A stretch of DNA of 64,000 nucleotides from contig DASXPA010000247.1 in NCBI GenBank assembly GCA_036493915.1, forward strand, positions 6,085-70,084, written 5' to 3'. A program made the position numbers and the translations under genes. Source of the DNA: Chthoniobacterales bacterium (GTDB taxonomy: Bacteria; Verrucomicrobiota; Verrucomicrobiia; Chthoniobacterales; UBA10450). Positions 2,990 through 59,912 of this stretch are shown here, piece after piece. The notes under the pieces are model-generated. The model ran no database searches, had not been told where the DNA came from, and worked only from the letters and a program-made list of their open reading frames with translations. Within the stretch, counting starts at the first letter, position 1; every line of letters starts with the position of its first letter.

Positions 2990-3561
2990 GGTCTTTGGTT
3001 GAGAGCGCCCTGTTCGTTAGGCGGGAGGTCGCTCGCCTTCGCGCTCCGACTCAGCTGCAGCGCGCGGATGTAGGCGGCGATGGCCCAGCGATCGTTCGGC
3101 TCGACTCGCGCCGCGTAGGAATACATCACGCCGTAGCCGTTTGTAATGACATCGTAAAAGTGACCGATCGGCGCATTACGCAACCGCTCGCTGTGATAAG
3201 TCGGCGGCGACGGAAACCCCCGCTTCACCACCTCGCCGTTTCCATCCCCGGCGAGGCCGTGGCACACGGCGCAATAAATATTGAATCGCTCCTGTCCCCG
3301 CTGGAGTAATTCGGGTGTCAGCTTTATCGGCGCCGGTAGCTGCGCGACGAGCACACCATTCGCGAGTCCGGTGTAATACGCTCCGTTTTCCCGCGGCTGG
3401 TGGTACTCGATCGTGTGAGGCGGAAGCGGGCGCGCACTCGTCCCATCCTGGAAAAAGTCGTTCTGCGAGTAAGGCTTTGTTCTCGGCTGGTTGTACATGT
3501 CCTGCCGGCAGGCGCCGCAGGCGAGCGCGAGCAAAAAGCAGCCGCAAAGCGCGAGTCTCAC
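2986..3561 (-). CDS. actE: alternative complex III subunit ActE (monoheme cytochrome c lipoprotein)
   Basis: 191 aa. Lipoprotein-like signal MRLALCGCFLLALACGAC and a single CAVCH heme-c motif. GTG start overlaps the actD stop (GTGA, 3558-3561). Confidence 0.8.
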   Translation of the reverse strand: MRLALCGCFLLALACGACRQDMYNQPRTKPYSQNDFFQDGTSARPLPPHTIEYHQPRENGAYYTGLANGVLVAQLPAPIKLTPELLQRGQERFNIYCAVCHGLAGDGNGEVVKRGFPSPPTYHSERLRNAPIGHFYDVITNGYGVMYSYAARVEPNDRWAIAAYIRALQLSRSAKASDLPPNEQGALNQRP

Positions 3562-4091
3562 TTCGCCACCTCCTTCACCATAAGCGGGCGAAGACCCTCC
3601 AGGAACGCGCGCGTCCGCGCCTTGTCGTATCGCGGGTCAACGGTCTCGATACAAAGAAAGAAACGGTCCTGCGAAGCGCGCTCAAATTCCGGCAGGTTAA
3701 ACATTGGGTGGTAGGGTTTAGGCAGACCGCTCAAGCCTAATGAAAAAAAGAACGCCGTGAGGGAGGCGCCCAGCACGGTCAACTCGAAGGTGATAGGAAT
3801 AAATGAAGGCCAGCTATGAAGTGGACGTCCACCCACGTTCAAAGGATAACTGATAACGTTGGCAAACCATTCCATGAAATAAGCACTGCACCCTCCCAGG
3901 ATGCCTCCGAGGAGGACAAGGAGCGGCATCCGGTTGCTCTTCCCCAGCGCCTTGGCAAGGCCTTCGATCGGGAAAGGCGTGTAGCCATCCATCTGTCGAT
4001 AACCCTCTCCGTACGCCTCCTCCGCAGCGTGCATCAACTCCTCAGCGGTTTCGAACTCGGCGGCCAGGCCATATACCCAATTCTCGCTCAT
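3558..4091 (-). CDS. actD: alternative complex III subunit ActD (DUF3341-type membrane protein)
   Basis: 177 aa with central hydrophobic helices. Sits between actC and actE. ATGA overlap with actC at 4088-4091. Confidence 0.75.
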   Translation of the reverse strand: MSENWVYGLAAEFETAEELMHAAEEAYGEGYRQMDGYTPFPIEGLAKALGKSNRMPLLVLLGGILGGCSAYFMEWFANVISYPLNVGGRPLHSWPSFIPITFELTVLGASLTAFFFSLGLSGLPKPYHPMFNLPEFERASQDRFFLCIETVDPRYDKARTRAFLEGLRPLMVKEVAK

Positions 4092-5491: not shown

Positions 5492-5520
5492 TCTCCGCTC
5501 CTTCCTAACGTCGAGCCCGT

Positions 5521-5639: not shown

Positions 5640-8600
5640 TCACGACGCTAATTGCGAGTTGGGGTTGCGCAGCTTGGCGGCATAGCTGGTGCGCGGACGG
5701 GTGTTTAGCTCGGCAAGCATGCCATAGTCGAGCGGCTGTCTTTTTAAGCGCGAGACCCGGCTTTTGGGATCATGGATGTCGCCGAAAGTGATCGCCTCCG
5801 CCGGACAGACCTGGGCGCAGGCGGGTGTGATTTCGCCATCCCGAATTTTGCGATTCTCCAGCTGCGCGGTGATGCGCGCCGCATTGATCCGCTGCAAACA
5901 ATAGGTGCACTTTTCCATCACGCCGCGACAGCGCACAGTGACGTCGGGGTTTTTCACCAGCTTCTCGCTAGGCGCGTAATCGCCGTTGTATTCGAGGAAA
6001 TTAAAGCGCCTGACTTTGTAGGGACAGTTATTCGAGCAGTAACGCGTGCCGACACAACGGTTATAGATTTGCAGGTTAAGACCTTCATCGTCGTGTACCG
6101 TCGCTGCCACCGGACAAACCAGTTCACAGGGTGCCTGCTCGCAATGCATGCACGGGACTGGTTGATGATGAAACTCCGGATTGTCAGGCGCGCCGGCGTG
6201 ATAGGTGTCGACCCGAATCCAGTGCATCTCGCGTCCAGAGATGACTTGTAACTTACCGACAACTGGAATGTTGTTTTCTGCCTGACAGGCAATGGTGCAA
6301 GCGTTGCAGCCGATGCAAGTGTTGAGATCGACCACCATCGCCCAGGCGTAGCCATGGTTTTTGAATTCGTCCGGGTTGTAGAGCGTTTCGTCCTCTTTCG
6401 GAACTTTCTCCATCTCCTCGGCGAAACGCGGTCGCCTAACGAACTCGGCAAGCGTGCCCGAGCGATACATGTCGCGCCCTTCGATCGTAAAATGGTTTTG
6501 GGTAGTGGCGAACTGCTCCTGGTGAGGCAGCTTGCGAATCGTTAGGCCAGTGTCTTGCCAAAGCGCGTCGGAAGTGCGCAGGGCGTAAGCGTTATAACCT
6601 TTGTTCGTCCCGACGCGGCCGGCCTGTTGGCGGCCGTAGCCAAGATGCAAAGTGACCGTATTCTCCGCCTGGCCGGGCATGATCCAGATTGGCGCGCCGA
6701 GTTTCCGGCCGCGGTAAGTGAGTTCGATATAGTTGCCGTTCTTGAGATGTTCGCGCTGGGCGAGTGCCGGACTAACAAGTGCGGCATTATCCCAGGTGAT
6801 TTTGGAAAAAGGTTTAGGCAACTCCTGGAGCCAGCTGTTGTTCAGATAGCAGCCGTCAAGCATGCTGGGATCGGGACGGAAGACGATTTCCAGCCCAGTC
6901 GCGGGTGCGGGTTGTGAGACAGCGGGAGTCGGCGAAGCGGCGGCTCCCGACGGTGGAGCGCCGGCCGAGCCGGGCACAACGCCATCGCTTAAGACTTTGC
7001 GCCACTGTTTCTCGAAATCGCCGCTCTGGTTTCCCTGCTGCCACTGGGCGCGGACGATTTCGTAGTCGCTCCGAACGGGTTGTTGGACAAATGCCTGCAG
7101 CAACTGGTGCGTGGAAACGCCTTCGTAGAGCGGTTCGACAAGCGGCTGGACGATGGCGGCGGTGCCGTCATAGGCGCGGTTATCGCTCCAGCTCTCGAGA
7201 AAATGCGTGGCGGGAATCTGCCAATGACAAAGCTGGGAGGTTTCGTTGGCGTAAAGGCTGTGGTGCACGCGCAGTTTCACCTTTTGCAGCGCGCCGGCAA
7301 AATCGAGATCGACCGGCGCATCGTAAACGGGATCTCCGCCGATGATGACGAGCAGCTCGACTGCGCCGCTGCGCATTTCGGTAATCAGTTCTCGCAACGA
7401 ATCGTTCTGATTCACCGGATGGGCGACGGCGGAGGCGCGCGGGGTGACGGTGACGCCGATATTGCCTAACGACGCGTTGATCTCCGCGACGAGCGCCTGG
7501 ACTTCAGGCGGTTGAGTTTCGCCGGCGATGACGATGCTCGCTCCGCGATTCGCGCGCAGGTCCTGAGCCGCGGCCCAGACCCATTCGTTCGCGGAGACGG
7601 GAACGTTGGCGCTGGCGCCGCCGGTTCCAACCAAGGCTGCAAGGGCCTGTGTAAGTTGCCGTATCTCGTGCCCGGCAATCGGCAGCCGGTGATCGGCATT
7701 GGAACCGGTGATCGTCGGCGTCGGCTCGGCCGCGTAGAAGCGGCTCATGCTCGCGCCGGCAGGTTGTCCCACCCGCCGTGCGGCCGCGAGATCGCGCGTG
7801 TGGCTCAGCGCCGCCGGATGCATGTAGAGGAAATCCGAGTCGAGCGCGACGATGATTCTTGCCTTCGAAAAATCGTAGAGGTTTTCGGTGCCGCCGGTGC
7901 GAACTGCATCGCGCGTAAGCGGCTCCCATTGGTGCCAATTAGCGCGCGGAAATTTTTTTCCGAAGGCCTGAATCTGTGCGGCGAGCGTCGGCGAGGTGAC
8001 GGTCTGGGTGAGAAGGCGAATGCCCGCGCCATTGTTAGGCGATTGCGCGGCGAGGGCGACATTGAGCTCGTCGAGAAAGTTGCCCCAAGTTGCACCGGCG
8101 GTCCCGCCGGTGAGAGCTTTGGAGCGATCAGGATCGTAGAGGTCGAGGACGTCGGCCTGCGCCCAAATGGTGGTGGCGCCGAGACTGGCAGGATGTTCGG
8201 GGTTGCCCTCGATCTTAGTCGGACGGCCCTCGTTGCTCGTGACGATGATGCCCTGGCCGTAGCCGCCGAAGGTGGTGGCGCTGGCGAAATAGAGAGGCTT
8301 GCCTGGGACTAGCTCCTCGGGCCGGTTCACGTAAGGGACGATTTTTTCGATGCTCTGTTTGGTGCAGGCGCCGAGGCCGGCGAGGGCAAGCGACGCACCC
8401 ATGAGCCGGAGGAAATCGCGCCGATGCAACGCGTCGTGCCATTCGGAGGCACCCCGCGGGAACTCGCGATGGAGCCAGGCCTCGAACTCGGGCGTTTGCG
8501 CGAGTTCGTCGAGGCTGCGCCAGTATTTGGGAGAGGTTTCTTCCATCCTGGAGGGCGGAGCTCCTGCGACGCCGAGAGTGCCTGGATTTGCGGAGCTCAT

Positions 8601-8669: not shown

Positions 8670-9325
8670 CGGTGGCAGACGGAGCAGTTCGTTAGGCGAC
8701 CGGTCGTGTCGATGCCGTATTGCCTAACGAGCCGGGCACCCTGTTCCTCCTGATCGGGCGGCGGTTTCCAGTGCAGATCGTAAATTTTGTCGCGCGGGCG
8801 GACGTAATTTTGCGGAGCGCGATGGCACTCGAGACACCATTTCATGTAGAGGGTCTGCGTCCGCCAAGTGAGCGGCATCCGGTCCAGTTGCCCGTGGCAG
8901 GTGGAACAGCCGACGCCTTTGGCGATGTGGATGCTGTGATTGAAAAAGACGAAGTCGGGCAGGTCGTTGACCCGGTTCCACCGCAACGGCTGGTTGGTCG
9001 TTAGGCTGGCGCGCACGGGCTGGAGGACGGGGGCTTCGGTCCAGATTTGGGAATGGCAGGTCATACAAACCTCGGTGCTGGGGATGCCGGCGAAGCTCGA
9101 TTTCTCGACCGAGGTGTGGCAGTAACGGCAATCGATGCCGTCATCGCCGACGTGGTGTTTGTGACTGAAGGGCACCGGCTGATTGAGCGGGACGTCGACG
9201 TAGGTCGTGTAAGGCGACCAGAAAAGCGCGTAGGTGAGCCAGATCGCGCCGCCCAGCGCAACCACGACGACCACGATCGTGACCTTGGCATGGACATTTG
9301 CCTTGCGCGGAAAGATCTGAGCCAT
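8666..9325 (-). CDS. actA: alternative complex III subunit ActA (pentaheme cytochrome c, N-terminal membrane anchor)
   Basis: 219 aa. Five CxxCH motifs (CRYCH, CMTCH, CSTCH, CLECH, CSVCH). N-terminal TM helix VTIVVVVVALGGAIWLTYALF. Confidence 0.9.
   Translation of the reverse strand: MAQIFPRKANVHAKVTIVVVVVALGGAIWLTYALFWSPYTTYVDVPLNQPVPFSHKHHVGDDGIDCRYCHTSVEKSSFAGIPSTEVCMTCHSQIWTEAPVLQPVRASLTTNQPLRWNRVNDLPDFVFFNHSIHIAKGVGCSTCHGQLDRMPLTWRTQTLYMKWCLECHRAPQNYVRPRDKIYDLHWKPPPDQEEQGARLVRQYGIDTTGRLTNCSVCHR
8689..8730. repeat. inverted pair of the abundant word TCGTTAGGC (TCGTTAGGC-N24-GCCTAACGA)
   Basis: Read directly from the sequence. The two 9-mers are exact reverse complements inside the 3' end of actA, next to the actA/actB junction. 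Confidence 0.9.
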
Positions 9326-9773: not shown

Positions 9774-11600
9774 TCAGCGTTTGCGCACGTCGGCCGCGGC
9801 GCCCGGTTTCTCGGCGAGAACGTAGGCGGTATTGACGAGGCCGATGTGGGTGAACGCTTGCGGGAAATTTCCCAACTGCCGCTTCTTCTTCGGATCGTAT
9901 TCCTCCGAGAGAAGTCCGAGGTCGTTGCGCAGGGCGAGCAGACGTTCGAAAAGGAGGCGCGCTTCTTTCTTGCGCCCGACGAGATGGAGGCAATCGGCGA
10001 GCCAAAAAGAGCAAGGCAGAAAAACCCCCTCGTCGCCCGGCAGTCCGTCGATCTCCTTTTCGTTAGGCCGATAACGCAAGACGAAGCCGCCTGCCATCAA
10101 TTCACGCTCCACGGCCGCGATCGTGTTTTGAACCCGCTTGTCCTCGGGCGGGAGGAAGCCGACCATCGGCAACATGAGGATGCTGGCGTCCATCGCGTCC
10201 GACCCGTAGGCCTGAGTAAACGCTTTCACCTTTTTGTTGTAGCCGCGGGCGCAGACTTCGCGATGGATTTTGTCGCGCAGTTTGCGCCAGCCATCGATAT
10301 GCTTCTTGGCTGAGTAACCGGCTTTTTCGACCAGCTTCACAGCGCGATCGAAAGCCACCCAGGCCATCACTTTGGAATGGGTAAATTGCTGGCGCTTACC
10401 GCGCACTTCCCAAATCCCTTCGTCTGGCTTGTTCCATTTCCCTTCGAGATAATCGAGCAAGGCGACGTGCATTCGCCAATCGGCTTCGCTCGTCTCGATC
10501 CCGGCGCGCTGGCCTTGATACATCGAGTCGATGACTTCGCCGTAAACATCGAGCTGAAATTGCTCGGAGGCGGCATTGCCTTCGCGCACCGGCTTGGAAT
10601 TCGCGTAGCCGCTTAACCAGGGAAGCTGGTGCTCGGTCAAGCGCCGTTCGCCGCGCACGCCATACATGATCTGCAACTGCGCCGCGCTCCCCGCCATCGC
10701 CCGCAGGAGCCACTCCCGCCAGGCCTTGGCCTCCTCCCGGTAGCCGGCGTTGAGCAGAGAGAAGAGGGTAAAAGTCGCGTCGCGCAGCCAGCAGTAGCGG
10801 TAATCCCAGTTGCGCACTCCGCCGATCGATTCCGGCAGCGAAGTCGTCGCCGCCGCGACGATGCCGCCGGTGGGCGCATAGGTCAGCCCTTTCAAAGTAA
10901 TGAGCGAGCGCATGACCGCGTCGCGCCAGGGCGCCTCGCCATATGAGCAACGCCTCGACCAACTCCGCCAATAGCGTTCGGTCTGTGCGAGCGCGACCTC
11001 GGGCTCCACTTCTCGCGGCGGATCCTCGTGCGAGGGAAACCAGGTGAGGACAAACGGCACGCGGTCGCCTTTCTCCACAGAAAAATCCGCCACCGTCATG
11101 AGGTCTTCGCCATGGGTGGAGATGGGCGTGTGCAGGATGAGGGCATTGGGTCCGGCGACCGCTTCGAGGCCGCCGTGGCGCCGGCGCACCCAGGGAATGA
11201 TCGACCCGTAATCGAAGCGGATGATCAACTCCATCCGGATTTTCATTTTGCCTTCAAGGCCTTCGATGATCCGGACGATGTCGGGATTCGTACCGCGCGG
11301 CGGCATAAAATCGATGAAACGAATCGCGCCGGTGGCGGTGTAGACTTCCGTCTCCATGATCAGGGTGTCGCCCCGGTAACGCCGCTCGCGTTTTTTTATT
11401 TTGCCTTCCGGAGTGAAGGTCCAGCAGCCGTTCTTCTTTTTGCCTAACAATGCCGCAAAACACGCGGCGGAATCGAAACGCGGCAGGCAAAGCCAATCGA
11501 CGCTTCCGTCGCGACTGACGAGGGCGCAGCTCTGCGTGTCGCTGAGAAATGCGTAGTCCTCGATCGGGACCGTTCTCTTCTCTTTGTGCTGCGCGCTCAT
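9774..11600 (-). CDS. glycoside hydrolase family 15 (glucoamylase/trehalase-like)
   Basis: 608 aa. N-terminal beta-sandwich plus (alpha/alpha)6 domain motifs (AATTSLPESIGGVRNWDYRYCWLRDA, WEVRG, LSEEYDP...QLGNFPQAFTHIGLV). Confidence 0.85.
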   Translation of the reverse strand: MSAQHKEKRTVPIEDYAFLSDTQSCALVSRDGSVDWLCLPRFDSAACFAALLGKKKNGCWTFTPEGKIKKRERRYRGDTLIMETEVYTATGAIRFIDFMPPRGTNPDIVRIIEGLEGKMKIRMELIIRFDYGSIIPWVRRRHGGLEAVAGPNALILHTPISTHGEDLMTVADFSVEKGDRVPFVLTWFPSHEDPPREVEPEVALAQTERYWRSWSRRCSYGEAPWRDAVMRSLITLKGLTYAPTGGIVAAATTSLPESIGGVRNWDYRYCWLRDATFTLFSLLNAGYREEAKAWREWLLRAMAGSAAQLQIMYGVRGERRLTEHQLPWLSGYANSKPVREGNAASEQFQLDVYGEVIDSMYQGQRAGIETSEADWRMHVALLDYLEGKWNKPDEGIWEVRGKRQQFTHSKVMAWVAFDRAVKLVEKAGYSAKKHIDGWRKLRDKIHREVCARGYNKKVKAFTQAYGSDAMDASILMLPMVGFLPPEDKRVQNTIAAVERELMAGGFVLRYRPNEKEIDGLPGDEGVFLPCSFWLADCLHLVGRKKEARLLFERLLALRNDLGLLSEEYDPKKKRQLGNFPQAFTHIGLVNTAYVLAEKPGAAADVRKR

Positions 11601-11663: not shown

Positions 11664-12646
11664 ATGAACTCAAAAATCACTCGCTATTGTCTCGTTTCCG
11701 CGGTCGCGCTGACGCTGAGCGCGCCACATTTTTTATCCGCCGCGACCTCCTCTCCTAGCGCAACCGTTTCGCCGCCGCCAGCCTTTTCGCCGCCGCCGTT
11801 AGGCCAGACAAACCATTTTTCGCCGACCAATCTCGACCAGCGCATGGGGCAACTCGACAATCAACTCGACTCCGTTTTCGCAAATACATTTCGGAATTTT
11901 GGCGACTGGTTCGGGCCGAACAATCTCGGTTCCTCGATCGATCTGCGGGATCAAAAGGACAAATACGTCGTCCGCGTTTACGTCCCCGGCTCCGATACCT
12001 CGAAGGTCAACGCCCGCGTCGAAAACAACACGCTGCACGTCACCGCCGAAGGTGGAAAGACCAGGAAAAATTCCAGCCAAAGCGAACGCTACGAACAGAT
12101 CGTGAGTCTCCCCGGCCCGGTCGACGCGAGCAAAATGCGAATCGAGCGAAAGCAAAATCTCGTCGTCATCAACCTGCCGAAAGCGGTCGGTGCGACGGCA
12201 GCTGCCTCACCGACGGCAAGTCCTGAAACGTCGCCGTTTGAAAACAATTTCGCAGCCTTCGATCAATCGATCGTCAATCAAATGGCACGGATGCAGAGCC
12301 GGATGGACCAGATGTTTCGCGACGCTTTTCCCGACGAAAATGGCCTAACGAACGACTTCGGCACGATGCCGCTCGGTTCCGCCGTCCATGTCGACAACCA
12401 GAAAAACCAATACGTCGTCCACTTCTATCTGCCTAACAAAGACCTCAAGAACATCGACGTGAAATTGGAAAACGGACAACTCCGCCTGACCGCTTCCGAG
12501 AGCGAAAACGAGCAAAAGAAAACATGCGCAGCATCCAATCCGGCAGCTACGAGCAGCTCCTGACCCTGCCTGGTCCCGTGAAAAAAAACGGCATGAAAGT
12601 CGAGCGGCAGAACGGCACCATCGTCGTGACCCTCCCAAAGGCGTGA
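11664..12646 (+). pseudogene. secreted protein with two Hsp20/alpha-crystallin-like domains; reading frame broken near 12515-12522
   Basis: ORF 11664..12563 carries a signal peptide and one complete ACD (DKYVVRVYVPG...LHVTAEGG...ERYEQIVSLPGPVD...NLVVINLPKA). The second ACD starts in frame (NQYVVHFYLPN...LRLTASE) but finishes in the -1 frame (SYEQLLTLPGPVKKNGMKVERQNGTIVVTLPKA, stop 12644-12646). Confidence 0.6.
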
Positions 12647-21520: not shown

Positions 21521-21526
21521 TAAAAC

Positions 21527-45933: not shown

Positions 45934-45935
45934 GG
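45927..45935. repeat. copy of the abundant word (TCGTTAGGG) providing overlapping stop codons for two convergent genes
   Basis: TAG at 45931-45933 ends the Rrf2 gene. The complement of 45930-45932 (TAA) ends rmuC. Confidence 0.9.
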
Positions 45936-51515: not shown

Positions 51516-53396
51516 CTACAACAGCACTTCGATCGCGGCGGCGACTTCCTGAGCGCTGACCGCTTTCATGCAGCGGAAATCGAGCGGGCATTTGCGCAGA
51601 AAACAGGGACTGCACTCGACCTGATGCCTAACGACCAAGCTTTTCTTTCCGAGCGGTCCGGTGAGGCGGGGCTCGGTTGAACCGAAGACTGCGACCACCG
51701 GCACGCCAAGAAGGGTCGCGAGGTGCATCGTGCCGGTATCATTCGTGAGCAACAGCTCGCAGCGGCGCAGCTCGTCGATCAGTTGCTCGAGCGTCGTCTT
51801 GCCAATGAGGTTGGTACAAGTTCCGCCAAAAGCAGCCGCCACCTGCGCCCCTACTTCTTCGTCCTTCGCGGTTCCAAAAAAGACCCAGTGACCGCTGATG
51901 GCCGCGGCCGTTTCCGCGAATCGCTCCGGCAGCCAGCGTTTCGCCGGCCCATACTCGGCGCCCGGACAAAGCCCCAATCGGCGCTCGCCCGCGGCGGCGA
52001 GCGGCGGCGATGAAACCGCGATGTCACCTGCCTCTGCGCTCGTGCCTAACGATCGTGCGAGATCGAGATAGTGCTCCACCTGATGCGGTGGCGGACCGGG
52101 CCGTTCGATCTTCGGCACGACCTGATTTAGCAACCAGCGCCGGTGACGCCCGGCATAACCGACCCGCCGCGGCAGTCCGCCCAGCCAAAGCTCGAGAGCG
52201 CTGCGGAAGGAATTTGGAAAAGCGATCCCGACATCGAAAGGCGCCTCCAGTCGCAAAGCCCGCCGCACCGCGCCTAACGACATTTTGCCTAACGAAATTA
52301 CGGCATCGACTTCCGGCACGAGCCGCCAGATCGCAGCGATTTTTTCCGGCGCGAGAATGGTGATATGCGCGTCCGGCCGCCCGCGTTTGATCGCGCGCAC
52401 CGCCGGCACGCTCATGACGCTGTCACCGAGCCAGTTACTCGCGCGGATGAGGATGCGAAAGGGCTGGAGGGCAGCGACGCTGTCGCCCGCCACGAAGAGG
52501 CCGCGTTTATATTGCGTCAGGAGCCAGTTTGGCTTCGGGGTTTTCCATCGGTTGTGGACCCAAAACCAATCCTCCGGCGCGCGCCGGATCTCGTCGGCGA
52601 TGACTGCGTTGGTCTTGGCGGTGAGCGAGGCGACGGTGTCGTCAGGCTGACCGTAGGCTGGAGAAAAAACGAGGCGCCATTTTGCGAGGCCGTCGGTGTA
52701 AAGGGCGGCGCCAAAAAGAGCGGCGCCAGTGCGCTTGCAAAGCACGCCGGCCAGCGGTGAAGTCGAGGCGAGCCGCCCGAAGAATGGCGTCCACATTCCG
52801 GCGTCGCCAGCGTGCTGATCGCTGAGGATCCCGATCATTCCGCGGTCGCGCAGGAGTCGGATGGCTTTTCCGAAACCCTCGCTGCGATCGAACAAGCGCA
52901 GGCCAAAGCGCGCCCGTTGCCGACCGACGAATTCGTCGATCCGACGATTGCGCAATTTCTGATAAACCGTGCCGAGCGGAACGTAATCAAAGCAATAGGG
53001 TAGGATTTGCACAAAGAGTTCCCAGTTCCCAAGATGACTGAGCGCGAGAACCACTGGTCGACCGGCGCGTAGCTGGCGATGGACTTCGTCGGCGCCTTCC
53101 ATCGCGACGAAGTTCGCGACCTCGCTCTGCGGCAGGCTATTGAGCTTCGCGCCGCTGAGCAGATTTGCCCCGAGCCTTTGAAAGTGACGGCGGACGATGC
53201 GCTTTTTTTCCGCCTCTGATAACTCGGAGCCGAACGCGATTTGGAGATTGTGTCGCGCGAGTTCGCGATACTTTGGAAGCCCGAGCCAGGCGAAAAAACC
53301 GAGGATTTCGCCGAACGAAAAGACCGCGCGCAGAGGGAGCGCGACAGTGAGGGCAAGCGCGGCGCGGTAGAAATGGTAAACGCAGAAATCGAGCAT
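51516..53396 (-). CDS. fusion protein: lipid A late acyltransferase (LpxL/HtrB-like) N-terminal domain plus GT9 heptosyltransferase C-terminal domain
   Basis: 626 aa. N-half LALSHLGNWE (HX4E acyltransferase motif)...WFWVHNRWK. C-half FRILIRASNWLGDSVMSVPAVRAIK...NDTGTMHLATLLGVPVVAVFG. Confidence 0.8.
   Translation of the reverse strand: MLDFCVYHFYRAALALTVALPLRAVFSFGEILGFFAWLGLPKYRELARHNLQIAFGSELSEAEKKRIVRRHFQRLGANLLSGAKLNSLPQSEVANFVAMEGADEVHRQLRAGRPVVLALSHLGNWELFVQILPYCFDYVPLGTVYQKLRNRRIDEFVGRQRARFGLRLFDRSEGFGKAIRLLRDRGMIGILSDQHAGDAGMWTPFFGRLASTSPLAGVLCKRTGAALFGAALYTDGLAKWRLVFSPAYGQPDDTVASLTAKTNAVIADEIRRAPEDWFWVHNRWKTPKPNWLLTQYKRGLFVAGDSVAALQPFRILIRASNWLGDSVMSVPAVRAIKRGRPDAHITILAPEKIAAIWRLVPEVDAVISLGKMSLGAVRRALRLEAPFDVGIAFPNSFRSALELWLGGLPRRVGYAGRHRRWLLNQVVPKIERPGPPPHQVEHYLDLARSLGTSAEAGDIAVSSPPLAAAGERRLGLCPGAEYGPAKRWLPERFAETAAAISGHWVFFGTAKDEEVGAQVAAAFGGTCTNLIGKTTLEQLIDELRRCELLLTNDTGTMHLATLLGVPVVAVFGSTEPRLTGPLGKKSLVVRHQVECSPCFLRKCPLDFRCMKAVSAQEVAAAIEVLL
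52273..52296. repeat. direct pair of the abundant word (GCCTAACGA-N6-GCCTAACGA) inside the LpxL-GT9 gene
   Basis: Read directly: GCGCCTAACGACATTTTGCCTAACGAAATT. Encodes ISLGKMSLGA on the coding (minus) strand. Confidence 0.9.
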
Positions 53397-53481: not shown

Positions 53482-55920
53482 GTGCAGCGGCACCCTCTTC
53501 ACCTCACGCCTACGGATTTTGCGAAGTGCGTCGCGCGGGAATTTTCACCGGCGCGCCTGCTCCTGATCGGCCGCGAGACGGAACACCTTCTCGCGGAATG
53601 GCCAGGCGACACGGCTGAGAAGACCAGCCGGGCGAGCCTCGAAGATTTAGCGACTTCGCAAAACGGAAGCGAACCGCCTTTCGATCTTACGATCTGGTTT
53701 TATCCGCCTGAGATGGAGGCGGCGGAGGGTTCTGCGCAATTTGATCGCCTAACGAATTCAGCAAATCGCCTTCTCTTGTTGCCAGCGCCAGGCACGAATC
53801 CCACGCGCCGCCGCCCGGAGCTGGTCCGGCGTCTCGTGGCTGGCGGGCTTTTTCCCGTTTACGAATCGGAGATCGTCGAGCTCGAGCCGGACGCGGTGCT
53901 CCTTAGCCGGACGAAAGCTGGCTCGGCGGAGTCGCTCGTACCTGCGATCGAGATCGGATTTTCCCGGGTAAACACGCAGCTGCGGCGAGTCCGCAGAACG
54001 CTCCGCACCCGCCTCTCCGAATTAGAAGCGGCCGATCGTCACATCGCGCGACTCGAGCAAAAGATCGTCCAACTGAAGCAGGCGAAGCGCGACCTGAAAC
54101 AGCTCAAGGCCGAAAAGCAGGCTCTCCGCAAATCGCCCGAGCGCAAGATCGGTCAGGTCCTCCTCGCGCCTTATCGGCTCCCGCAAAAGCTCATCCGCGA
54201 GATCCGCAAGCGCCATCCGCAGGCCGCGCCCGATCCCCGGCGTCCCGCTTCGCCTAACGAATACCAGCGCTGGCTGCAACGGCACCAGGCGACCCCGGAG
54301 GAGTTGGCGCAAATGCGCCTGGAGTCGCGCACATTTTCCTATCGACCGCTGATCAGCGTGATTACGCCGGTCCACAACACGCCGGTGGTCTGGCTCGAGC
54401 AGGCAGTCGATTCCGTGCGCGAGCAGGCTTACGAAAATTGGGAGCTGAAGCTGGTCGACGACGGTTCAACCGATGACGATACGTTGCATGCACTCGTTAG
54501 GTTGGAAGCGAGCGACACGCGGATTCACCTTTCCCGCTTGGAAAAATCCGCCGGCATCTCCGCCGCCTCCAATATCGGTATCGAGAAGTCCAAAGGCGAC
54601 TGGATCGGGCTCCTCGATCACGATGATTTCCTCGAGCCGGATGCGCTCTACCAAACCGCAAAACTGCTCCAGCAACACCCCGATGCCGACCTGATTTATT
54701 CCGACGAAGACAAGATCACCGAGCTCGGATTTGAAGCGCCGTTTTTCAAACCGGAGTGGTCGCCCGATTTTTTCCTCTCCTACAACTACGTTTGCCATTT
54801 CACCACGCTTCGGCGCGACCTCGTGCGTAAGCTGGGCGGGTTTCGCTCGCAGTTCGATTTCGCCCAGGACTACGATCTTTATCTGCGGGTCATCGCGCGT
54901 TCGCCGCACATTTATCACGTGCCGCGCGTGCTCTATCATTGGCGACGCAGCCCCGGCTCGACTTCCACCAGTTTCCGCGCCAAGCCGGACGCGCTCGAAG
55001 CGGCCCGCAGCGCGCTCAGCGACTACCTTGTCCGGGCCGACCAGCCCGGACACGTCGCGGTCGATTGGAACACGCATGCCTTTCGCATCCGACGCGACAT
55101 CGTTGAGGAAAAACGCATCGCCATCATCATCCCGACGCGCGACCGCATCGATCTGCTCGCCCGCTGTGTCGCAAGCGTTGAGGAAAAAACGCGCTACGGG
55201 AGATTCGAGATCGTCATCGTCGATAACGACAGCGAAACTGAGGAGGCGTGCGCTTATTTCGGGCAAACGCGCCACCGCGTGCTCCAGTTCCCCGGACCCT
55301 TCAATTACTCGGCGATCAACAACTTCGCGGTCGAGCAGACCGACGCGCCGTGGTTGCTTTTTTTGAATAACGACGCGGAAGTGATCGACCCCGAATGGCT
55401 TACCTCGATGGCCGAACACATCCAGCGGCCGGAAGTCGGTGCGGTTGGCGCGCGCCTTCTGTTTCGCGACGGGAGCGTGCAACACGCCGGTATCGTCCTC
55501 GGCGTGCGCGGAACGGTGAAGCACGCCTTCTGCGGATTCGCCGGCGATTCCCCGGGCGTCTGTCGGCAATTGCAGGTCACGCGCAACTACAGCGCGGTCA
55601 CCGCCGCCTGTCTCCTCACCCGGCGCGATGTTTTTGAAAAGATCGGAGGATTTGATGAAGAGCAGCTCCCGGTCATCTTCAACGACGTGGACCTTTGTTT
55701 GAAAATGCGCGCGGCCGGTTACCTCGTCGTCTACACGCCCTTCGCGAAGCTCTATCATGAGGAGTCGGCGACGCGGCGGCTGAGCGTCGAGCCGATCGAG
55801 CTCGCCGTTCTGCGCGAGCGTTGGCCGGAGGTAGTCGAGCGCGATCCTTATTACAATCCCAATCTCTCCCGCGATCAGGCCGACTTCTCGTTAGGCGAAC
55901 CGGTCGGTGCGCTCTCATGA
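53482..55920 (+). CDS. large glycosyltransferase: N-terminal unknown domain, coiled coil and two tandem GT2 (GT-A) domains
   Basis: 812 aa. Heptad-rich RLSELEAADRHIARLEQKIVQLKQAKRDLKQLKAEKQALRK. GT2 unit 1 ISVITPVHNT...DDGSTDD...LDHDD. Unit 2 IAIIIPTRDR...VDNDS...NNDAEV. GTG start. Confidence 0.8.
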   Translation: MQRHPLHLTPTDFAKCVAREFSPARLLLIGRETEHLLAEWPGDTAEKTSRASLEDLATSQNGSEPPFDLTIWFYPPEMEAAEGSAQFDRLTNSANRLLLLPAPGTNPTRRRPELVRRLVAGGLFPVYESEIVELEPDAVLLSRTKAGSAESLVPAIEIGFSRVNTQLRRVRRTLRTRLSELEAADRHIARLEQKIVQLKQAKRDLKQLKAEKQALRKSPERKIGQVLLAPYRLPQKLIREIRKRHPQAAPDPRRPASPNEYQRWLQRHQATPEELAQMRLESRTFSYRPLISVITPVHNTPVVWLEQAVDSVREQAYENWELKLVDDGSTDDDTLHALVRLEASDTRIHLSRLEKSAGISAASNIGIEKSKGDWIGLLDHDDFLEPDALYQTAKLLQQHPDADLIYSDEDKITELGFEAPFFKPEWSPDFFLSYNYVCHFTTLRRDLVRKLGGFRSQFDFAQDYDLYLRVIARSPHIYHVPRVLYHWRRSPGSTSTSFRAKPDALEAARSALSDYLVRADQPGHVAVDWNTHAFRIRRDIVEEKRIAIIIPTRDRIDLLARCVASVEEKTRYGRFEIVIVDNDSETEEACAYFGQTRHRVLQFPGPFNYSAINNFAVEQTDAPWLLFLNNDAEVIDPEWLTSMAEHIQRPEVGAVGARLLFRDGSVQHAGIVLGVRGTVKHAFCGFAGDSPGVCRQLQVTRNYSAVTAACLLTRRDVFEKIGGFDEEQLPVIFNDVDLCLKMRAAGYLVVYTPFAKLYHEESATRRLSVEPIELAVLRERWPEVVERDPYYNPNLSRDQADFSLGEPVGALS

Positions 55921-56660
55921 AAAAAACAGACTCGAATCTCTGGCACGGCCTCACGGCCGAAGCGCAGGCCGCGCTCACCCAGCGTGACTACAGCGTGCGC
56001 GATCTCGCACAACAAATCGCCGAGGTCGGCGTCGACGCCGGGAAAGTTGCCGCTGTCGATCGGGGGCAGCCGGAGATCGTGAAGATCTGGATTCCCGGGG
56101 TGGAAGTTTTTTCGCGGACGATTCATCCGCAACGCCACCGTGGAGCGTTCGGTGAGTTCGTTAGGCGGGACGAAGGCCCGCTCGCCCGGATCAGTCTCTG
56201 GCCAAAACAATGGTCCGCCGCGCGGATGTTTCCGCAAACCGCTAAAGGCTTTCACGTTCACCCGCCGAACATCCCCGAGGGTGTCTCGCCTAATGACTGG
56301 TTTCAGCGGCTCTTCGTCGGCGAGCCGGAGAATTTTTCCCTGCGCCGCTACGAGGGCGAACAATGGGATGTGATGTTTTTTGTCCAAGGCCGCACGGAGA
56401 TGATTTTGCGTGAGGCGCGTGCTGGGATGCCGCCGCGGGCAATGCGCCTCTTCATCGATGGCGATAATCACCGCGGGGCGAACAATGTCGCGGTCGTGAT
56501 TCCGCCCGGCGTGGGGCACGCCGTTCGGGTCGAGGGTTCGGAGGATTTGATCATGGTCTATGGCACAAGCACGTCGTTCGTCGCGGAGTGGGAAGGACGG
56601 ATTGGGAGCGAGATCGAGACGGCGCAGCTGCCCGAGGCGTGGGCAAAATTTCTTCAGTGA
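55917..56660 (+). CDS. cupin-fold protein related to dTDP-4-dehydrorhamnose 3,5-epimerase (RmlC-like)
   Basis: Start MKKTDSNLW, overlapping the upstream stop (ATGA, 55917-55920). PGVEVFSRTIHPQRHRGAFGEF...KGFHVHPP...WDVMFFVQG pattern. Confidence 0.6.
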   Translation: MKKTDSNLWHGLTAEAQAALTQRDYSVRDLAQQIAEVGVDAGKVAAVDRGQPEIVKIWIPGVEVFSRTIHPQRHRGAFGEFVRRDEGPLARISLWPKQWSAARMFPQTAKGFHVHPPNIPEGVSPNDWFQRLFVGEPENFSLRRYEGEQWDVMFFVQGRTEMILREARAGMPPRAMRLFIDGDNHRGANNVAVVIPPGVGHAVRVEGSEDLIMVYGTSTSFVAEWEGRIGSEIETAQLPEAWAKFLQ

Positions 56661-56794: not shown

Positions 56795-57487
56795 GTGAAG
56801 CGGCAGTTCAATCCCGCCGATCCGGAGTGGATGGATCGGCCGCAGCCGGTTTCGCCGGAGCTGGTTTCCGATCTCCGCAATCTCCGATCGCTCAATCGTT
56901 ATTTCGGCAGCTATCCCCTGGTCCGGCATTTTTTGCGGCGCTGGATTCGGCCTAACGACAACTTGCGCATCGTCGATCTCGCTACTGGCTCGGGCGATAT
57001 TCCGCGGCTCGTGGTCGAACATGCGCGCAAAGTTGGCGCCCGCGTCACCGTGGATGCGGTCGACTTTCAGGCCTCGACCGTGGAAGTTGCGCGGAGTTTG
57101 AGCGAAAAATTTCCCGAGATCCGTTATCACTGCGCGGGCATCCAACATTTCGGCGAAAACCATTCCTACGACCTCGTGCTCTTTTCCCTCGCTCTGCACC
57201 ATTTTACAAAGGACGATGCGGTCGCCTTGTTGCGCCACGCTCGCGATCTTTCACGCGGCTGCGTCCTTGTTTCAGATCTGCGCCGAAATCGTCTGACGAC
57301 AATTGCTATCGATCTGCTCACCACTTTTGTTTATCGCGAGCCGATGACGCGAAACGACGCCCGCGCCTCGATCCGGCGCGCTTTTTCCTTTGCAGAAATG
57401 GGCGAACTGGCGCGGGCCGCCGGCTGGCAAAAGTTCGGGCACCGCCGCTTCCTGATCGGGCGGCAGGCGATTTGGCTGGAAAGATGA
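56795..57487 (+). CDS. class I SAM-dependent methyltransferase
   Basis: 230 aa. Motif I IVDLATGSGDIP. GTG start. Its stop overlaps the panC start (ATGA, 57484-57487). Confidence 0.75.
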   Translation: MKRQFNPADPEWMDRPQPVSPELVSDLRNLRSLNRYFGSYPLVRHFLRRWIRPNDNLRIVDLATGSGDIPRLVVEHARKVGARVTVDAVDFQASTVEVARSLSEKFPEIRYHCAGIQHFGENHSYDLVLFSLALHHFTKDDAVALLRHARDLSRGCVLVSDLRRNRLTTIAIDLLTTFVYREPMTRNDARASIRRAFSFAEMGELARAAGWQKFGHRRFLIGRQAIWLER

Positions 57488-58317
57488 AGATTGTTTCGAC
57501 CCTCGCCGAACTGCGCGCGCTTCCACGCGCTCCAAAGAAACGCCGAGTCCTGGTACCAACGATGGGGGCTCTGCATGGGGGGCATGTCTCGCTCGTTAGG
57601 CTGGCGCGAGAAAACGCGGGCGCGAATGGCGAAGTAGTTGTCAGCATTTTTGTGAACCCGCTGCAGTTCGAACCCGGCGCGGATTTCTCACGTTATCCGC
57701 GGCCGGAAGTGGCGGACGAAGAAGTTTGCCGCGCGGAAGGGGTCGATCTCATCTTTCGTCCCGCGCCTAACGAAATGTATGCAGGAGATCGTTCGACTTT
57801 TGTCGAGGAGACGATGCTCTCGGAGCGGCTTTGCGGCGCTTCGCGACCGGGCCATTTCCGTGGCGTCACCACGGTGGTGACGAAATTGTTTCACCTTCTC
57901 GCGCCAGATGCGGCGGTCTTTGGGGAGAAGGATTTTCAGCAACTTGCCATCGTTAGGCGCATGGTCCGCGATCTCGATTTCCCGATAGAGATTCTTGCCG
58001 GTCCGATCGTGCGCGAGCCGGATGGCCTCGCGCTGAGCTCGCGCAATCAGTATCTCAGCGCGGAAGAACGCGCGCAGGCCCCGGTCATTCGCACGGCGCT
58101 GCTCGCGGCGGCGCGCTCTTCGGACATGTCAGCTGAGAAAGTTCTCGCCAGCGCGCGCCGAGAGATCGAGTCCGCTCCCCTCGCCCGGATCGATTACGCG
58201 GAGATCGTCGGCGCCGACGATCTGCAACCGCGCCTAACGATCGCAGCGCGCACGCTTCTCGCCGTTGCCGCCTTCTTTGGCCGGACCCGCCTGATCGATA
58301 ATATTCTACTCGGATGA
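57484..58317 (+). CDS. panC: pantoate--beta-alanine ligase
   Basis: Start MKIVSTLAELR. PTMGALHGGHVSL, GEKDFQQL, and ALSSRN motifs. Confidence 0.95.
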   Translation: MKIVSTLAELRALPRAPKKRRVLVPTMGALHGGHVSLVRLARENAGANGEVVVSIFVNPLQFEPGADFSRYPRPEVADEEVCRAEGVDLIFRPAPNEMYAGDRSTFVEETMLSERLCGASRPGHFRGVTTVVTKLFHLLAPDAAVFGEKDFQQLAIVRRMVRDLDFPIEILAGPIVREPDGLALSSRNQYLSAEERAQAPVIRTALLAAARSSDMSAEKVLASARREIESAPLARIDYAEIVGADDLQPRLTIAARTLLAVAAFFGRTRLIDNILLG

Positions 58318-59912
58318 GAGAGTTCGATTTCGTCGTCATCGGCAGCGGGATCGCCGGCCTGACATTCGCCTTGAAATCTGCCGAATACGGTCGCGTTGCG
58401 ATCGTGACGAAACGCAAAGGTGTCGACTCGAACACAGCGTGGGCGCAAGGCGGCGTCGCTTGCGTGACGAGCGGCGAAGATTCATTCGCCCTCCACATTC
58501 GCGACACGCTCGAAGCCGGCGCAGGTCTTTGCGATCCGGAGACGGTCGAGACGGTCGTGAAGGAAGGACCGAAGCGGGTGCACGAGTTGATGGAGCTGGG
58601 TTTGCACTTTGACGAGCGCGAAGTTTCCGGCCATCTCGAACTCGATCTCGGGCGAGAGGGCGGGCATTCGAAACGTCGCGTTCTGCATGTGCACGATCTG
58701 ACCGGTTACGAAATCGAGAAGACGCTGCTCCGCGCGGTGCAGCAATCGCCCAACATTGACCTCCTCGAGAATCACATGGCCGTCGATCTCATCACCGCGG
58801 GAAAGTTGGGCTTCGCGACGGAAGATCATTGTCTCGGCGTTTATGTGCTCGACGAGATCTCGGGCGCAGTCGAGACGATCCGCACCGATCGGCTCGTGCT
58901 CGCGACCGGCGGTTGCGGGAAGGTTTATCTCTACACGACCAATCCCGACATCGCTTCGGGCGATGGCGTGGCGATGGCTTGGCGGGCGGGCGCGGTGATC
59001 GCGAACATGGAGTTCGTACAGTTCCATCCGACCTGTCTTTTTCATCCGCAGGCGAAATCGTTTCTCATCTCCGAGGCGGTGCGAGGCGAGGGGGGAATCC
59101 TGCGCAACAGCAAAGGAGAAGATTTCGTTAGGCAGGTCGATCCACGCGGCTCACTCGCGCCCCGCGATGTCGTCGCGCGCACGATCGACGCCGAGATGAA
59201 ACGCTCCGGCGCGCAATGTGTTTATCTCGATATTACGCAGCAGCCGCGGGACTTTTTGCAGGAACGTTTCCCGCACATTTACGAGACGTGTCTGCGCTAC
59301 GGAATCGATATGGCGAAGGTGCCAATCCCGGTCGTGCCGGCGGCGCATTATCAATGCGGCGGGATCAAGACGAACATCGACGGCGCGACCAGTCTGCCCG
59401 GTCTCTACGCGATCGGTGAAGTTGCCTGCACCGGCCTGCACGGCGCGAATCGGCTCGCGAGCAACTCGCTGCTTGAAGGTCTCGTCTTTGCGCATCGCGC
59501 TTGCGCGGCACTGATTCGGAGTCAGCCGCCGGCTCATCCAGCCGGCTCGGTTTCGCTTCCGGAGTGGAAACCGGGCGAAGTTCAAAACGTCGATGAGCTG
59601 GTGGTCATTTATCACAACTGGGACGAAATCCGCCGCCTGATGTGGGATTACGTTGGCATCGTCCGCACCGACAAGCGTCTGCAGCGAGCGAGCGCGCGCC
59701 TGCGCAATTTGCTGCGCGAGATTGACGAATTTTACTGGAACTTCCGGATCACGGTCGACCTCCTCGAGCTACGCAATCTTGCGACGGTCGCAGCCTTGAT
59801 CGTGGACTCGGCCCTGAGTCGAAAGGAAAGCCGGGGCTTGCATTTTACGCTCGATTATCCGGAAATGAACGATGCGGCGTTCCATTCCGATACGCTGCTC
59901 AGCCGGCGTTGA
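58314..59912 (+). CDS. nadB: L-aspartate oxidase
   Basis: 532 aa. FDFVVIGSGIAGL FAD motif, HPT...SEAVRGEGG, and GLYAIGEVACTGLHGANRLASNSLLE. ATGA overlap with panC. Confidence 0.95.
   Translation: MREFDFVVIGSGIAGLTFALKSAEYGRVAIVTKRKGVDSNTAWAQGGVACVTSGEDSFALHIRDTLEAGAGLCDPETVETVVKEGPKRVHELMELGLHFDEREVSGHLELDLGREGGHSKRRVLHVHDLTGYEIEKTLLRAVQQSPNIDLLENHMAVDLITAGKLGFATEDHCLGVYVLDEISGAVETIRTDRLVLATGGCGKVYLYTTNPDIASGDGVAMAWRAGAVIANMEFVQFHPTCLFHPQAKSFLISEAVRGEGGILRNSKGEDFVRQVDPRGSLAPRDVVARTIDAEMKRSGAQCVYLDITQQPRDFLQERFPHIYETCLRYGIDMAKVPIPVVPAAHYQCGGIKTNIDGATSLPGLYAIGEVACTGLHGANRLASNSLLEGLVFAHRACAALIRSQPPAHPAGSVSLPEWKPGEVQNVDELVVIYHNWDEIRRLMWDYVGIVRTDKRLQRASARLRNLLREIDEFYWNFRITVDLLELRNLATVAALIVDSALSRKESRGLHFTLDYPEMNDAAFHSDTLLSRR

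Follow-up and report, generated by a model that had tools for sequence, protein, structure and literature searches.

We found that a 9-bp DNA word, TCGTTAGGC (word A), is repeated about once per kb, in both orientations, in a stretch of DNA from an uncultured Chthoniobacterales bacterium of the phylum Verrucomicrobiota (contig DASXPA010000247.1). The whole stretch that was analyzed, which we call the window, is 64,000 bp long and 59.3% G+C. The word is genome-wide and clade-wide, because it is dense both in sister species and in unlinked contigs; this conclusion is based on syntenic loci and those contigs. The constraint acts on the word as double-stranded DNA, and not on RNA or protein. By analogy with the DNA uptake sequences (DUS) and uptake signal sequences (USS) of other bacteria, we propose that TCGTTAGGC could be a lineage-specific, genome-wide word for self-recognition, similar to an uptake signal. 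We see the case for and against this proposal as evenly balanced.

A 9-bp word in large excess

The core of the word, CGTTAGG, occurs exactly 65 times in the window, 36 times on the + strand and 29 times as CCTAACG. Most of these cores (57/65) continue to CGTTAGGC, 59/65 are preceded by T, and 52/65 are complete copies of TCGTTAGGC. Markov models of orders 0 to 3 predict only 0.34-0.74 copies of TCGTTAGGC on both strands, giving an excess of approximately 70- to 150-fold. The top-ranked 8-mers of the window were TCGTTAGG and CGTTAGGC, and the top 9-mer was TCGTTAGGC; GC-rich simple words ranked below them.

A previous reading made from the letters of the window (the sequence-only reading) had reported the 65 cores, the counts of 57 and 59, and rough expectations of ~8 for the 7-mer and 2-3 for the 8-mer. 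Our recount gave the same values, and the order-0 expectations were 8.3 and 2.5. All 65 sites exist, although three core coordinates were off by one (the correct starts are 25603, 52273 and 52288, not 25602, 52274 and 52289). The one-mismatch variants it described were found at their reported positions. It had also named a genome-wide observed/expected ratio near 1 as an outcome that would speak against it, and the ratio in the window is 52 to 0.34-0.74.

The word has sharp boundaries. We aligned sequences seeded on the pentamer GTTAG alone, pooling the window and word-carrying relatives. T-C preceded and G-C followed approximately 75-80% of the pooled GTTAG pentamers, and there was close to zero information beyond the 9 positions. 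Thus, TCGTTAGGC is a bare 9-bp word and not the center of a longer repeat. The sequence-only reading had considered that all copies might derive from one mobile repeat, and flanks without information reject that origin. The word is asymmetric (its reverse complement is GCCTAACGA).

Some positions tolerate change. In the pooled sequences of clade A, the carriers of word A, there were 250 perfect copies and 215 copies with one mismatch (73 expected). Positions 3, 4, 6 and 7 were nearly invariant. The tolerated changes were T1 to A or C, C2 to T, T5 to C, G8 to T, and C9 to G or T.

Placement in genes

The word is found in unrelated genes and shows no preference for intergenic DNA. In our Pfam-supported gene map, coding sequence makes up 91% of the window. 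The mapped genes include those for alternative complex III subunits, GH15, a symporter, peptidases, Mfd, TsaD, Fmt, PyrH, PanC and NadB, all in agreement with the identities given in the sequence-only reading, and those for topoisomerase IB, DAHP synthase, PdxA and RmuC. Of the 65 cores, 63 (97%) are intragenic, compared to ~59 expected from the coding fraction.

The word is read in every frame that it can occupy. All four stop-free combinations of frame and orientation are used in similar numbers (antisense x-L-T-x, 19; sense S/P-L-G, 17; antisense P-N-D/E/G, 14; sense x-V-R-x, 13), and the remaining two frames hold TAG or TAA. The ratio of sense to antisense cores is 30:33. The codons that make up the word are the rarest of the genome: TTA and CTA are 3.1% and 3.3% of Leu codons and AGG is 4.1% of Arg codons, and 24-30% of all uses of TTA, CTA and AGG fall in the word. 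Because all stop-free frames are used on both strands, with the rarest codons, we exclude codon bias, a protein motif, and signals that act in RNA or are linked to transcription. That the word is not a protein motif had been claimed before, and the four distinct peptide readings on both strands bear this out.

The absence of an orientation bias, also claimed before, was confirmed. The strand ratio in the window is 36:29 (binomial p=0.46) and the order of orientations is random (runs-test z=0.47). We rejected both clustering and regular spacing, since the copies are spaced as in a Poisson process (coefficient of variation 1.11, p=0.15; longest gap, p=0.34). There is a single close inverted pair (8689/8722), and it lies inside coding sequence.

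Conservation and turnover of sites

Sites are kept among species. We compared sites in codon alignments of 12 syntenic genes, anchored on the window. A word in one clade-A species was exactly kept in another in 59% of cases, compared to 14% when all 9-mers of these genes are counted. Many sites were private to one to three species, indicating ongoing turnover.

The alignments also show how copies are created. The sequence-only reading had proposed a comparison of orthologs for synonymous or conservative creation of the word, and creation by synonymous or permissive changes was seen. In the invariant Mfd peptide Y-S-S-L-G-A-G, carriers have TCG-TTA-GGC and non-carriers have TCG-CTC-GGC or TCG-CTG-GGC, and the adjoining synonymous positions vary freely in carriers and non-carriers alike. 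In species without the word, orthologous positions were bimodal: 11.5% were identical to the word, and the others diverged more than average (mode of 4-6 mismatches, compared to 2-3). One-mismatch states were rare at orthologous positions outside clade A (0.022 compared to 0.174).

The word is located where proteins are permissive, and it alters their composition. Residues flanking the word had an identity of 0.555, compared to 0.701 at random positions in the same proteins. In clade A, the tripeptide SLG was found 88 times and the reverse-order GLS 16 times; the orthologous proteins of non-carriers had 34 and 18, respectively. Similarly, P-N-D/E was found 24 times in carriers (0 for the reverse-order control) and 0 times in non-carriers (1 for the control). 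Of the clade-A S-L-G tripeptides, 73% are spelled exactly TCGTTAGGC. These alignments indicate that the word is maintained across species and that new copies arise by point substitution where the proteins tolerate it.

Distribution beyond the window

We found the word in many other genomes. With the Mfd of the window we retrieved 80 syntenic loci from different species (best-segment identity 65-83%), all of them from Chthoniobacterales, "Spartobacteria" or Udaeobacter metagenome-assembled genomes (MAGs) of Verrucomicrobiota. In the 14 closest species (78-83% best-segment identity), TCGTTAGGC was present at 0.4-1.0 per kb and the 7-mer core at 0.56-1.36 per kb. The density of TCGTTAGGC was intermediate in two further subclades and 0-0.2 per kb in the remaining loci, which is still far above the ~0.005 expected.

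We also scanned metagenomes for pairs of the word. Twenty soil contigs (141 kb), none homologous to the window, had a core density of 1.24 per kb (0.95 per kb without the two seed copies) and an 87:87 ratio of orientations. The word is thus not limited to the window, an outcome that the sequence-only reading had held against its own proposal: the 14 sister species and the 20 unlinked contigs carry it at approximately 1 per kb. It recurs in MAGs and contigs of many independent studies and assemblers. The other matches of the scan were due to chance or to tandem repeats. In five matches from metagenomes and viral contigs (L083, L096, L156, L208 and L220) the word lies inside short tandem repeats with periods of 14, 17 or 37 bp, and these are unrelated chance matches. 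TTAGGC is the nematode telomere unit.

A strong strand skew, which the sequence-only reading had said would point to another kind of word, was not found. Strand use did not depart locally from 50:50 in 13 independent regions, the window and 12 unlinked contigs (chi-square 13.6, 13 degrees of freedom, p=0.40). Since local ratios fit 50:50, a polar word of the type of Chi or of the FtsK-orienting polar sequences (KOPS) is ruled out without the position of the replication origin.

Dialects and other over-represented words

Related clades have different versions of the word. In a neighbor-joining tree of Mfd, species dense in TCGTTAGGC fall on one major branch, as a monophyletic core and two smaller subclades. 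These groups are told apart by the 5' extension of the word: core species have n-TCGTTAGGC, and both subclades have A-C-TCGTTAGGC (ACTCGTTAGGC), where 48-69% of copies have A at -3 and 54-60% have C at -2.

The sister major branch (Udaeobacter-like, ~55% G+C) is without dense TCGTTAGGC. It carries word B, AAGATCGACA, at up to 0.8-1.6 per kb. Word B is confined to this clade on the Mfd tree (loci L046, L047, L050, L052, L055, L058, L060, L061, L063, L070, L077 and L080) and is used in both orientations and all six frames. In one locus (L063) there were 17 copies in 21.6 kb, compared to 0.11 expected. Sites of AAGATCGACA were conserved in 46% of cases, compared to 10% for all 9-mers, and the word enriches K-I-D (55 compared to 6) and V-D-L (65 compared to 19) in proteins. 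It is delimited less sharply than TCGTTAGGC. Of the MAG chromosomes that are complete or nearly so, OZ244652.1 is dense in TCGTTAGGC, OY969715.1 is poor in it, and CAWBIP010000002.1 has word B.

A third candidate, word C (AATGACGAA; TTCGTCATT), was found at 11-14 copies per 16-23 kb in L053, L059 and L065, and also in L057. We rejected it as a confirmed dialect, as it is poorly delimited and 17/40 copies (43%) are intergenic; the others are mainly antisense. Word C may be a regulatory or other element.

When suitably oriented, (AC)TCGTTAGGC, ACTCGTCAC (in L062, L030 and L074), TTCGTCATT and TGTCGATCTT have a TCG(T) core in common. This core may go back to one ancestral word, by analogy with the common core of the DUS dialects, or may be due to chance.

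Other words were over-represented in single loci or groups of loci. In several Chthoniobacterales loci that are poor in TCGTTAGGC, the top octamers were 8-bp palindromes: ATCGCGAT (L023, L029, L030 and L075), CGAATTCG (L025, L037, L056 and L062), TTCGCGAA (L032, L038, L049 and L072) and TTCCGGAA (L040). These palindromes recall those of the highly iterated palindrome (HIP) type. There were ~6 sites per 23 kb, approximately 10- to 20-fold over an order-0 expectation only, and codon or dinucleotide effects are possible. Over-represented 10-mers specific to single loci were GTCATCCCGA (8 copies in L015 and 5 in L033) and GTAGCCGTGG (5 copies in L019).

Inserted and phage DNA

The word is absent from one inserted segment. 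The genes for topoisomerase IB and DUF1844 adjoin each other (4-539 bp apart) in all 18 of the relatives in which both were captured. In the window, a lineage-specific insertion of 3.3 kb (19549-22831) lies between them and contains a PMT_2 fragment, 860 bp with no called gene, and genes with PDZ and MBL-fold domains (Pfam). This insertion, a single example, has zero copies of the word; the chance of this is ~0.035 at 1.02 per kb. The topoisomerase IB gene itself (18397-19506) encodes a bacterial homolog of the eukaryotic-type enzyme (Pfam Topoisom_I and Top1B_N_bact) and adjoins DUF1844 across the order.

The word is dense in one viral contig, IMGVR_UViG_3300037261_000237 (25.5 kb; L203/L223/L258), also a single example. 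This contig encodes a repressor-like regulator, a holin, a large terminase and a portal protein, and is a phage or prophage-like. Within 18 kb it has 22 cores, of which the terminase and portal genes contain seven, and its copies of the word favor G at -2. In the structural module, 12/16 copies are on one strand (4:12), which is not significant (binomial p ~0.08). A distant relative of the contig, found via the terminase, has no copies of the word.

This contig was the one convincing case for word A in word-pair scans of 2.9 million viral contigs; the remaining matches were mostly tandem repeats or chance pairs. No contig dense in word B was found in the scan for that word. One other match, IMGVR_UViG_3300023035_000005 (L216; 156.7 kb, 36% G+C), has 6 copies of TCGTTAGGC, all on one strand, and 12 cores in 11 kb. 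They do not belong to the pattern of the Chthoniobacterales; a phage promoter or repeat motif may account for them.

A possible role in DNA uptake

We favor a reading of TCGTTAGGC as similar to an uptake signal because the constraint on it is independent of strand, frame, gene and the direction of replication, overrides codon usage and alters proteins, is heritable by site, varies among clades and appears to be slow to invade new DNA, all of which match descriptions of DUS and USS (PMC2817400; PMC3630211; bioRxiv 10.1101/2025.10.24.684340). From a word that is maintained at the level of DNA we infer one that is bound by an uptake receptor. The predicted receptor, part of an uptake machine based on a type IV pilus and secretin, would bind the 9 bp irrespective of orientation. 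Fragments from the same species would be imported, and recombined via DprA and RecA, more often than other DNA. This uptake bias would be a molecular drive by which the word accumulates to approximately one per kb, and purifying selection on proteins would restrict it to permissive codons. In the sister (Udaeobacter-like) clade, the receptor would have another specificity, for AAGATCGACA.

A wider claim falls slightly short of even. It is that the uncultured Chthoniobacterales/Udaeobacter group would have the first self-DNA recognition of the uptake-signal type outside the Proteobacteria, with TCGTTAGGC, ACTCGTTAGGC and AAGATCGACA as clade dialects and with frequent species-restricted transformation via a new receptor.

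Candidate components of a competence machinery were found. We searched 2.9 Mb of DNA by phmmer with E. coli homologs as probes and confirmed matches by Pfam. In this small sample, word-carrying contigs encode full-length DprA (L020), a secretin (L101) and PilT-type ATPases (L188 and L139). Of the machinery that the sequence-only reading had proposed to look for, DprA and a secretin are present, and ComEC and pilins did not appear in the 2.9 Mb. There was no homolog of PilB, PilC or PilM either, which says little in a small genome sample. In one of the word-carrying contigs (L139, 6447-9065), a gene beside that for the PilT-type ATPase encodes FtsK with the gamma (KOPS-reading) domain. Because the gamma domain is present and TCGTTAGGC is non-polar, any polar KOPS word there differs from TCGTTAGGC.

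Several points weigh against a role in uptake. DprA, secretins and PilT-type ATPases occur widely and are not exclusive to competence, and the 2.9 Mb yielded neither ComEC nor a candidate receptor, which again says little in a sample of this size. The 20 unlinked soil contigs are known by their word pairs alone and not by taxon, and the insertion and the phage contig are one example each. The literature on this order reports no data on uptake or transformation. The word is not enriched between genes (63/65 cores intragenic, ~59 expected) or in inverted pairs that could form terminators. USS and DUS are under-represented in coding sequence, with 34.5-65% in open reading frames (ORFs) (PMC2817400). 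Thus, of the likenesses to them drawn in the sequence-only reading, length, density and orientation independence stand and intragenic location does not. The word uses the rarest codons and does not favor the cheapest frame, which runs against the trend in codon preference that is reported for USS. Lastly, HIP1 of cyanobacteria combines hyper-abundance and site conservation with no demonstrated role in uptake (PMC5861425).

Alternative explanations

The strongest rival, and a serious one even though we judge it unlikely, is that TCGTTAGGC is a HIP1-like word with an intracellular role, in nucleoid or chromosome organization, as the site of an abundant DNA-binding protein, or in a methylation-linked process. 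HIP1 has the same statistical signature of excess and site conservation (PMC5861425), TCGTTAGGC follows the coding fraction and not terminators, and other Chthoniobacterales loci have enriched 8-bp palindromes. However, TCGTTAGGC is not palindromic, and no DNA methyltransferase is encoded in the 64-kb window (Pfam). A contiguous, fully specified, asymmetric 9-bp site would also be unusual for a methyltransferase. The absence of the word from the insertion and its presence in the prophage-like contig fit a HIP1-like role and an uptake signal alike. The two readings partly converge, since HIP1 appears to be linked to natural transformation (bioRxiv 10.1101/2024.09.10.611283).

Two further explanations fit less well. 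In the first, which we consider improbable, the word has no function and is driven by mutation or repair, such that short-patch repair or biased gene conversion turns near-cognates into TCGTTAGGC in any resident DNA. This would account for the build-up of the word in chromosomal and prophage-like DNA alike, for the depletion of one-mismatch forms at orthologous positions, and for a word that changes from clade to clade, as the specificity of a repair enzyme could. A drive alone does not explain sites that are retained far outside the dense clade (in mfd of 29 species and pdxA of 17). In addition, repair biases of the Vsr/CCWGG type shift word frequencies by far less than 100-fold, and we know of no repair enzyme with 9-bp specificity.

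In the second, which is less probable still, the word is a non-polar, Chi-like marker of self that attenuates a nuclease of the RecBCD or AddAB type or stimulates recombination, and phages gain it to escape degradation. Species-specific, short, asymmetric words in excess in the core genome are typical of Chi. The word is dense in the phage or prophage-like contig, with most copies in the structural module on one strand, and even without polarity, a density of 1 per kb would place a correctly oriented site every 2 kb. However, neither replication-linked nor local strand polarity was found in the window and 12 other regions, and the strand bias in the phage contig is not significant. Known Chi sites are 5-8 nt long, in few-fold excess and strongly co-oriented with replication.

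An ordinary cause, such as remnants of mobile repeats (repetitive extragenic palindromes or miniature inverted-repeat transposable elements; REP/MITE), a protein motif, codon or dinucleotide bias, or an assembly artifact, has its a priori frequency alone in its favor and is very improbable given flanks without information, four peptide readings on both strands, less than one copy expected at Markov orders 0 to 3, the rarest codons, and recurrence across independent studies and assemblers.

Positions of the word in the window

Coordinates are those of the 9-mer in the window, with its strand; copies are complete TCGTTAGGC unless a variant is named. The first copy is antisense in the gene for a cytochrome c (ActE-like) at 3014-3022 (+, P-P-N-E). 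At 5503-5511 (-), close upstream of the start of actC (NrfD), there is the 7-mer core only, as ACGTTAGGA. In actB, copies are sense at 6434-6442 (-, F-V-R-R) and 7464-7472 (-, S-L-G) and antisense at 6539-6547 (+, G-L-T-I). In actA, they are antisense at 8689-8697 (+, R-L-T-N) and 8998-9006 (+, S-L-T-T) and sense at 8722-8730 (-, L-V-R-Q). The GH15 gene has one antisense copy at 10060-10068 (+, R-P-N-E). The HSP20 gene has the position-1 variant CCGTTAGGC, sense, at 11796-11804 (+, P-L-G) and an antisense copy at 12343-12351 (-, G-L-T-N). The GNAT gene has antisense copies at 12757-12765 (+, K-P-N-D) and 13084-13092 (+, A-P-N-E) and sense copies at 12866-12874 (-, L-V-R-L) and 12911-12919 (-, F-V-R-P). 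The symporter gene has a sense copy at 13459-13467 (+, S-L-G) and an antisense copy at 13997-14005 (-, G-L-T-T).

In the M28 peptidase gene, an antisense copy at 16101-16109 (+, R-P-N-E) is followed by two antisense variants, TCGTTAGGG (position 9) at 16534-16542 (+) and CCGTTAGGC at 17032-17040 (+), and by sense copies at 17141-17149 (-, S-L-G) and 17765-17773 (-, S-L-G). Both sites in the topoisomerase IB gene are antisense, a complete copy at 18960-18968 (+, G-L-T-T) and CCGTTAGGC at 19235-19243 (+). In the M16 peptidase gene, the antisense copy at 23524-23532 (+, G-L-T-S) is a site in 7/9 clade-A species and 5 others, and the sense copy at 24746-24754 (-, S-L-G) is a site in 8/9 clade-A species. 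This gene also has TCGTTAGGG at 23866-23874 (+, antisense) and 24466-24474 (-, sense), an antisense copy at 25602-25610 (+, S-P-N-E), and CCGTTAGGC at 25764-25772 (+, antisense). A hypothetical gene has an antisense copy at 27103-27111 (+, A-P-N-D), present in 8/9 clade-A species, and a sense copy at 27245-27253 (-, I-V-R-Q).

The DAHP synthase gene has a sense copy at 31483-31491 (+, L-V-R-R), in the overlap with the mfd ORF, which is a site in 9/15 clade-A species. In mfd there are sense copies at 31546-31554 (+, S-L-G), at 32011-32019 (+, S-L-G; 14/15 clade-A species, despite freely varying flanking residues) and at 34117-34125 (+, in the invariant peptide Y-S-S-L-G-A-G; 12/15 clade-A species and 29 other species), and an antisense copy at 32456-32464 (-, R-L-T-N). 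The sense copy in pdxA at 35941-35949 (+, S-L-G) is a site in 11/15 clade-A species and 17 others.

Farther along, the polyprenyl synthetase gene has an antisense copy at 38081-38089 (-, G-L-T-K) and CCGTTAGGC, sense, at 38716-38724 (+, P-L-G). In tsaD there are TCGTTAGGG, antisense, at 39012-39020 (+) and a sense copy at 39133-39141 (-, S-L-G). The DUF885 gene has a sense copy at 41450-41458 (+, S-L-G), and the gene for an HtrA-like protease has antisense copies at 43715-43723 (+, R-L-T-K) and 43897-43905 (+, Q-P-N-D). The Rrf2 regulator gene has an antisense copy at 45683-45691 (-, R-L-T-K). The TAG of the TCGTTAGGG at 45927-45935 (+), as read from the sequence, is the Rrf2 stop codon, in a convergent 4-bp overlap with rmuC. 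Two antisense copies in fmt, at 49606-49614 (-, R-L-T-I) and 49619-49627 (-, G-P-N-E), are 13 bp apart, and pyrH has TCGTTAGGG, antisense, at 50666-50674 (-).

The LpxL-GT9 gene has four sense copies, at 51626-51634 (-, V-V-R-H), 52044-52052 (-, S-L-G), 52272-52280 (-, S-L-G) and 52287-52295 (-, S-L-G), the last two 15 bp apart. GT2 sequence has antisense copies at 53747-53755 (-, R-L-T-N) and 54252-54260 (-, S-P-N-E), the position-9 variant TCGTTAGGT, sense, at 54494-54502 (+, L-V-R-L), and a sense copy at 55888-55896 (+, S-L-G) in the overlap with the next ORF. A hypothetical gene has a sense copy at 56158-56166 (+, F-V-R-R), and the gene for a small-molecule methyltransferase has an antisense copy at 56950-56958 (-, R-P-N-D). 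In panC, copies are sense at 57593-57601 (+, L-V-R-L) and 57950-57958 (+, I-V-R-R) and antisense at 57765-57773 (-, A-P-N-E) and 58232-58240 (-, R-L-T-I). The last copy is sense in nadB at 59125-59133 (+, F-V-R-Q).

The one-mismatch form TGTTAGGC (C2 to T, the commonest decay variant) is at 8033-8040, 25243-25250 and 32216-32223 on the + strand, and at 11442-11449 and 12431-12438 on the - strand (GCCTAACA on the + strand). Another one-mismatch form, GGTTAGGC, is at 17585-17592 (+).

Significance

The sequence-only reading knew of no such word in this kind of genome, and our full-text literature searches agree. Apart from primers and unrelated papers, nothing came up for either word, or for competence, uptake sequences or iterated words in Verrucomicrobia, Udaeobacter or Chthoniobacter, and a paper on the evolution of ComEC has no mention of Verrucomicrobiota. 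The Chthoniobacterales/Udaeobacter lineage is among the most abundant of soil bacteria. Our results describe what would be the comparative-genomic signature of an uptake-signal system in an unrelated phylum; in a 2025 survey, sequence-specific DNA uptake is documented only in two proteobacterial families, the Neisseriaceae and Pasteurellaceae (bioRxiv 10.1101/2025.10.24.684340). Very abundant soil bacteria may recognize and import the DNA of their own species. If so, species-restricted natural transformation would be frequent in a dominant soil group, and the spread of self-recognizing transformation, with its part in the boundaries of soil species, becomes a testable question.

The words also have practical uses. 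They can serve as barcodes that assign contigs, prophages and phages to Chthoniobacterales hosts, as illustrated by one IMG/VR contig. They define an exact oligonucleotide bait for a receptor and are a handle for DNA delivery into a group that resists cultivation and genetics. Even without a role in uptake, the 9-bp word calls for a biological explanation, as it overrides codon usage and reshapes proteins across an order.

Comparison with known systems

TCGTTAGGC differs from REP, MITE and other interspersed repeats in that its flanks have approximately zero information and 97% of its copies are intragenic. Like Chi and like KOPS or the architecture-imparting sequences of FtsK, it is short, asymmetric, species-specific and in excess in core DNA. 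Unlike these, its orientation is random in every region examined. Chi and KOPS are strongly co-oriented with replication, are shorter and are far less over-represented.

HIP1 (GCGATCGC) of cyanobacteria is in 15- to 300-fold excess, at approximately one per gene, in all frames and conserved between genomes, and its function is unsettled after decades of study (PMC5861425). It is reported to enhance natural transformation (bioRxiv 10.1101/2024.09.10.611283). TCGTTAGGC is like HIP1 in being hyper-abundant and largely intragenic, with conservation of sites between genomes and with lineage variants (PMC5861425, PMC4390886). The two differ in that HIP1 is palindromic, is the target of an orphan methyltransferase and has a periodicity of 10-90 kb, whereas TCGTTAGGC is asymmetric and 64 kb is too short for periodicity.

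A density of approximately 1 per kb is typical of USS and DUS. TCGTTAGGC is unlike these in its phylum and its unrelated sequence, and its receptor, an equivalent of ComP or of the predicted ComN, is hypothetical. It is 97% intragenic and not concentrated in intergenic DNA or terminators, where about half of the uptake sequences of the DUS/USS type (DUES) lie (bioRxiv 10.1101/2025.10.24.684340). It has no frame preference and is made of the rarest codons.

The likenesses to DUS and USS are numerous. TCGTTAGGC is short, asymmetric and approximately 100-fold in excess, in both orientations and without replication polarity; genomes contain the DUES, words of 9-10 nt, in hundreds to thousands of copies (bioRxiv 10.1101/2025.10.24.684340). 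It lies in unrelated genes, in all stop-free frames and at poorly conserved residues, with its tripeptides enriched over their reverse-order controls; poorly conserved locations and enriched encoded peptides are properties of all uptake sequences (PMC2817400). A possible further likeness is that it is absent from one inserted segment and dense in one phage or prophage-like contig; in Pasteurellaceae, temperate phages reach host-like densities of USS, unlike large lytic phages and recent arrivals (PMC6776037). Finally, as with DUS, sites are kept among related species and the clade dialects consist of a constant core with a variable extension (PMC3630211).

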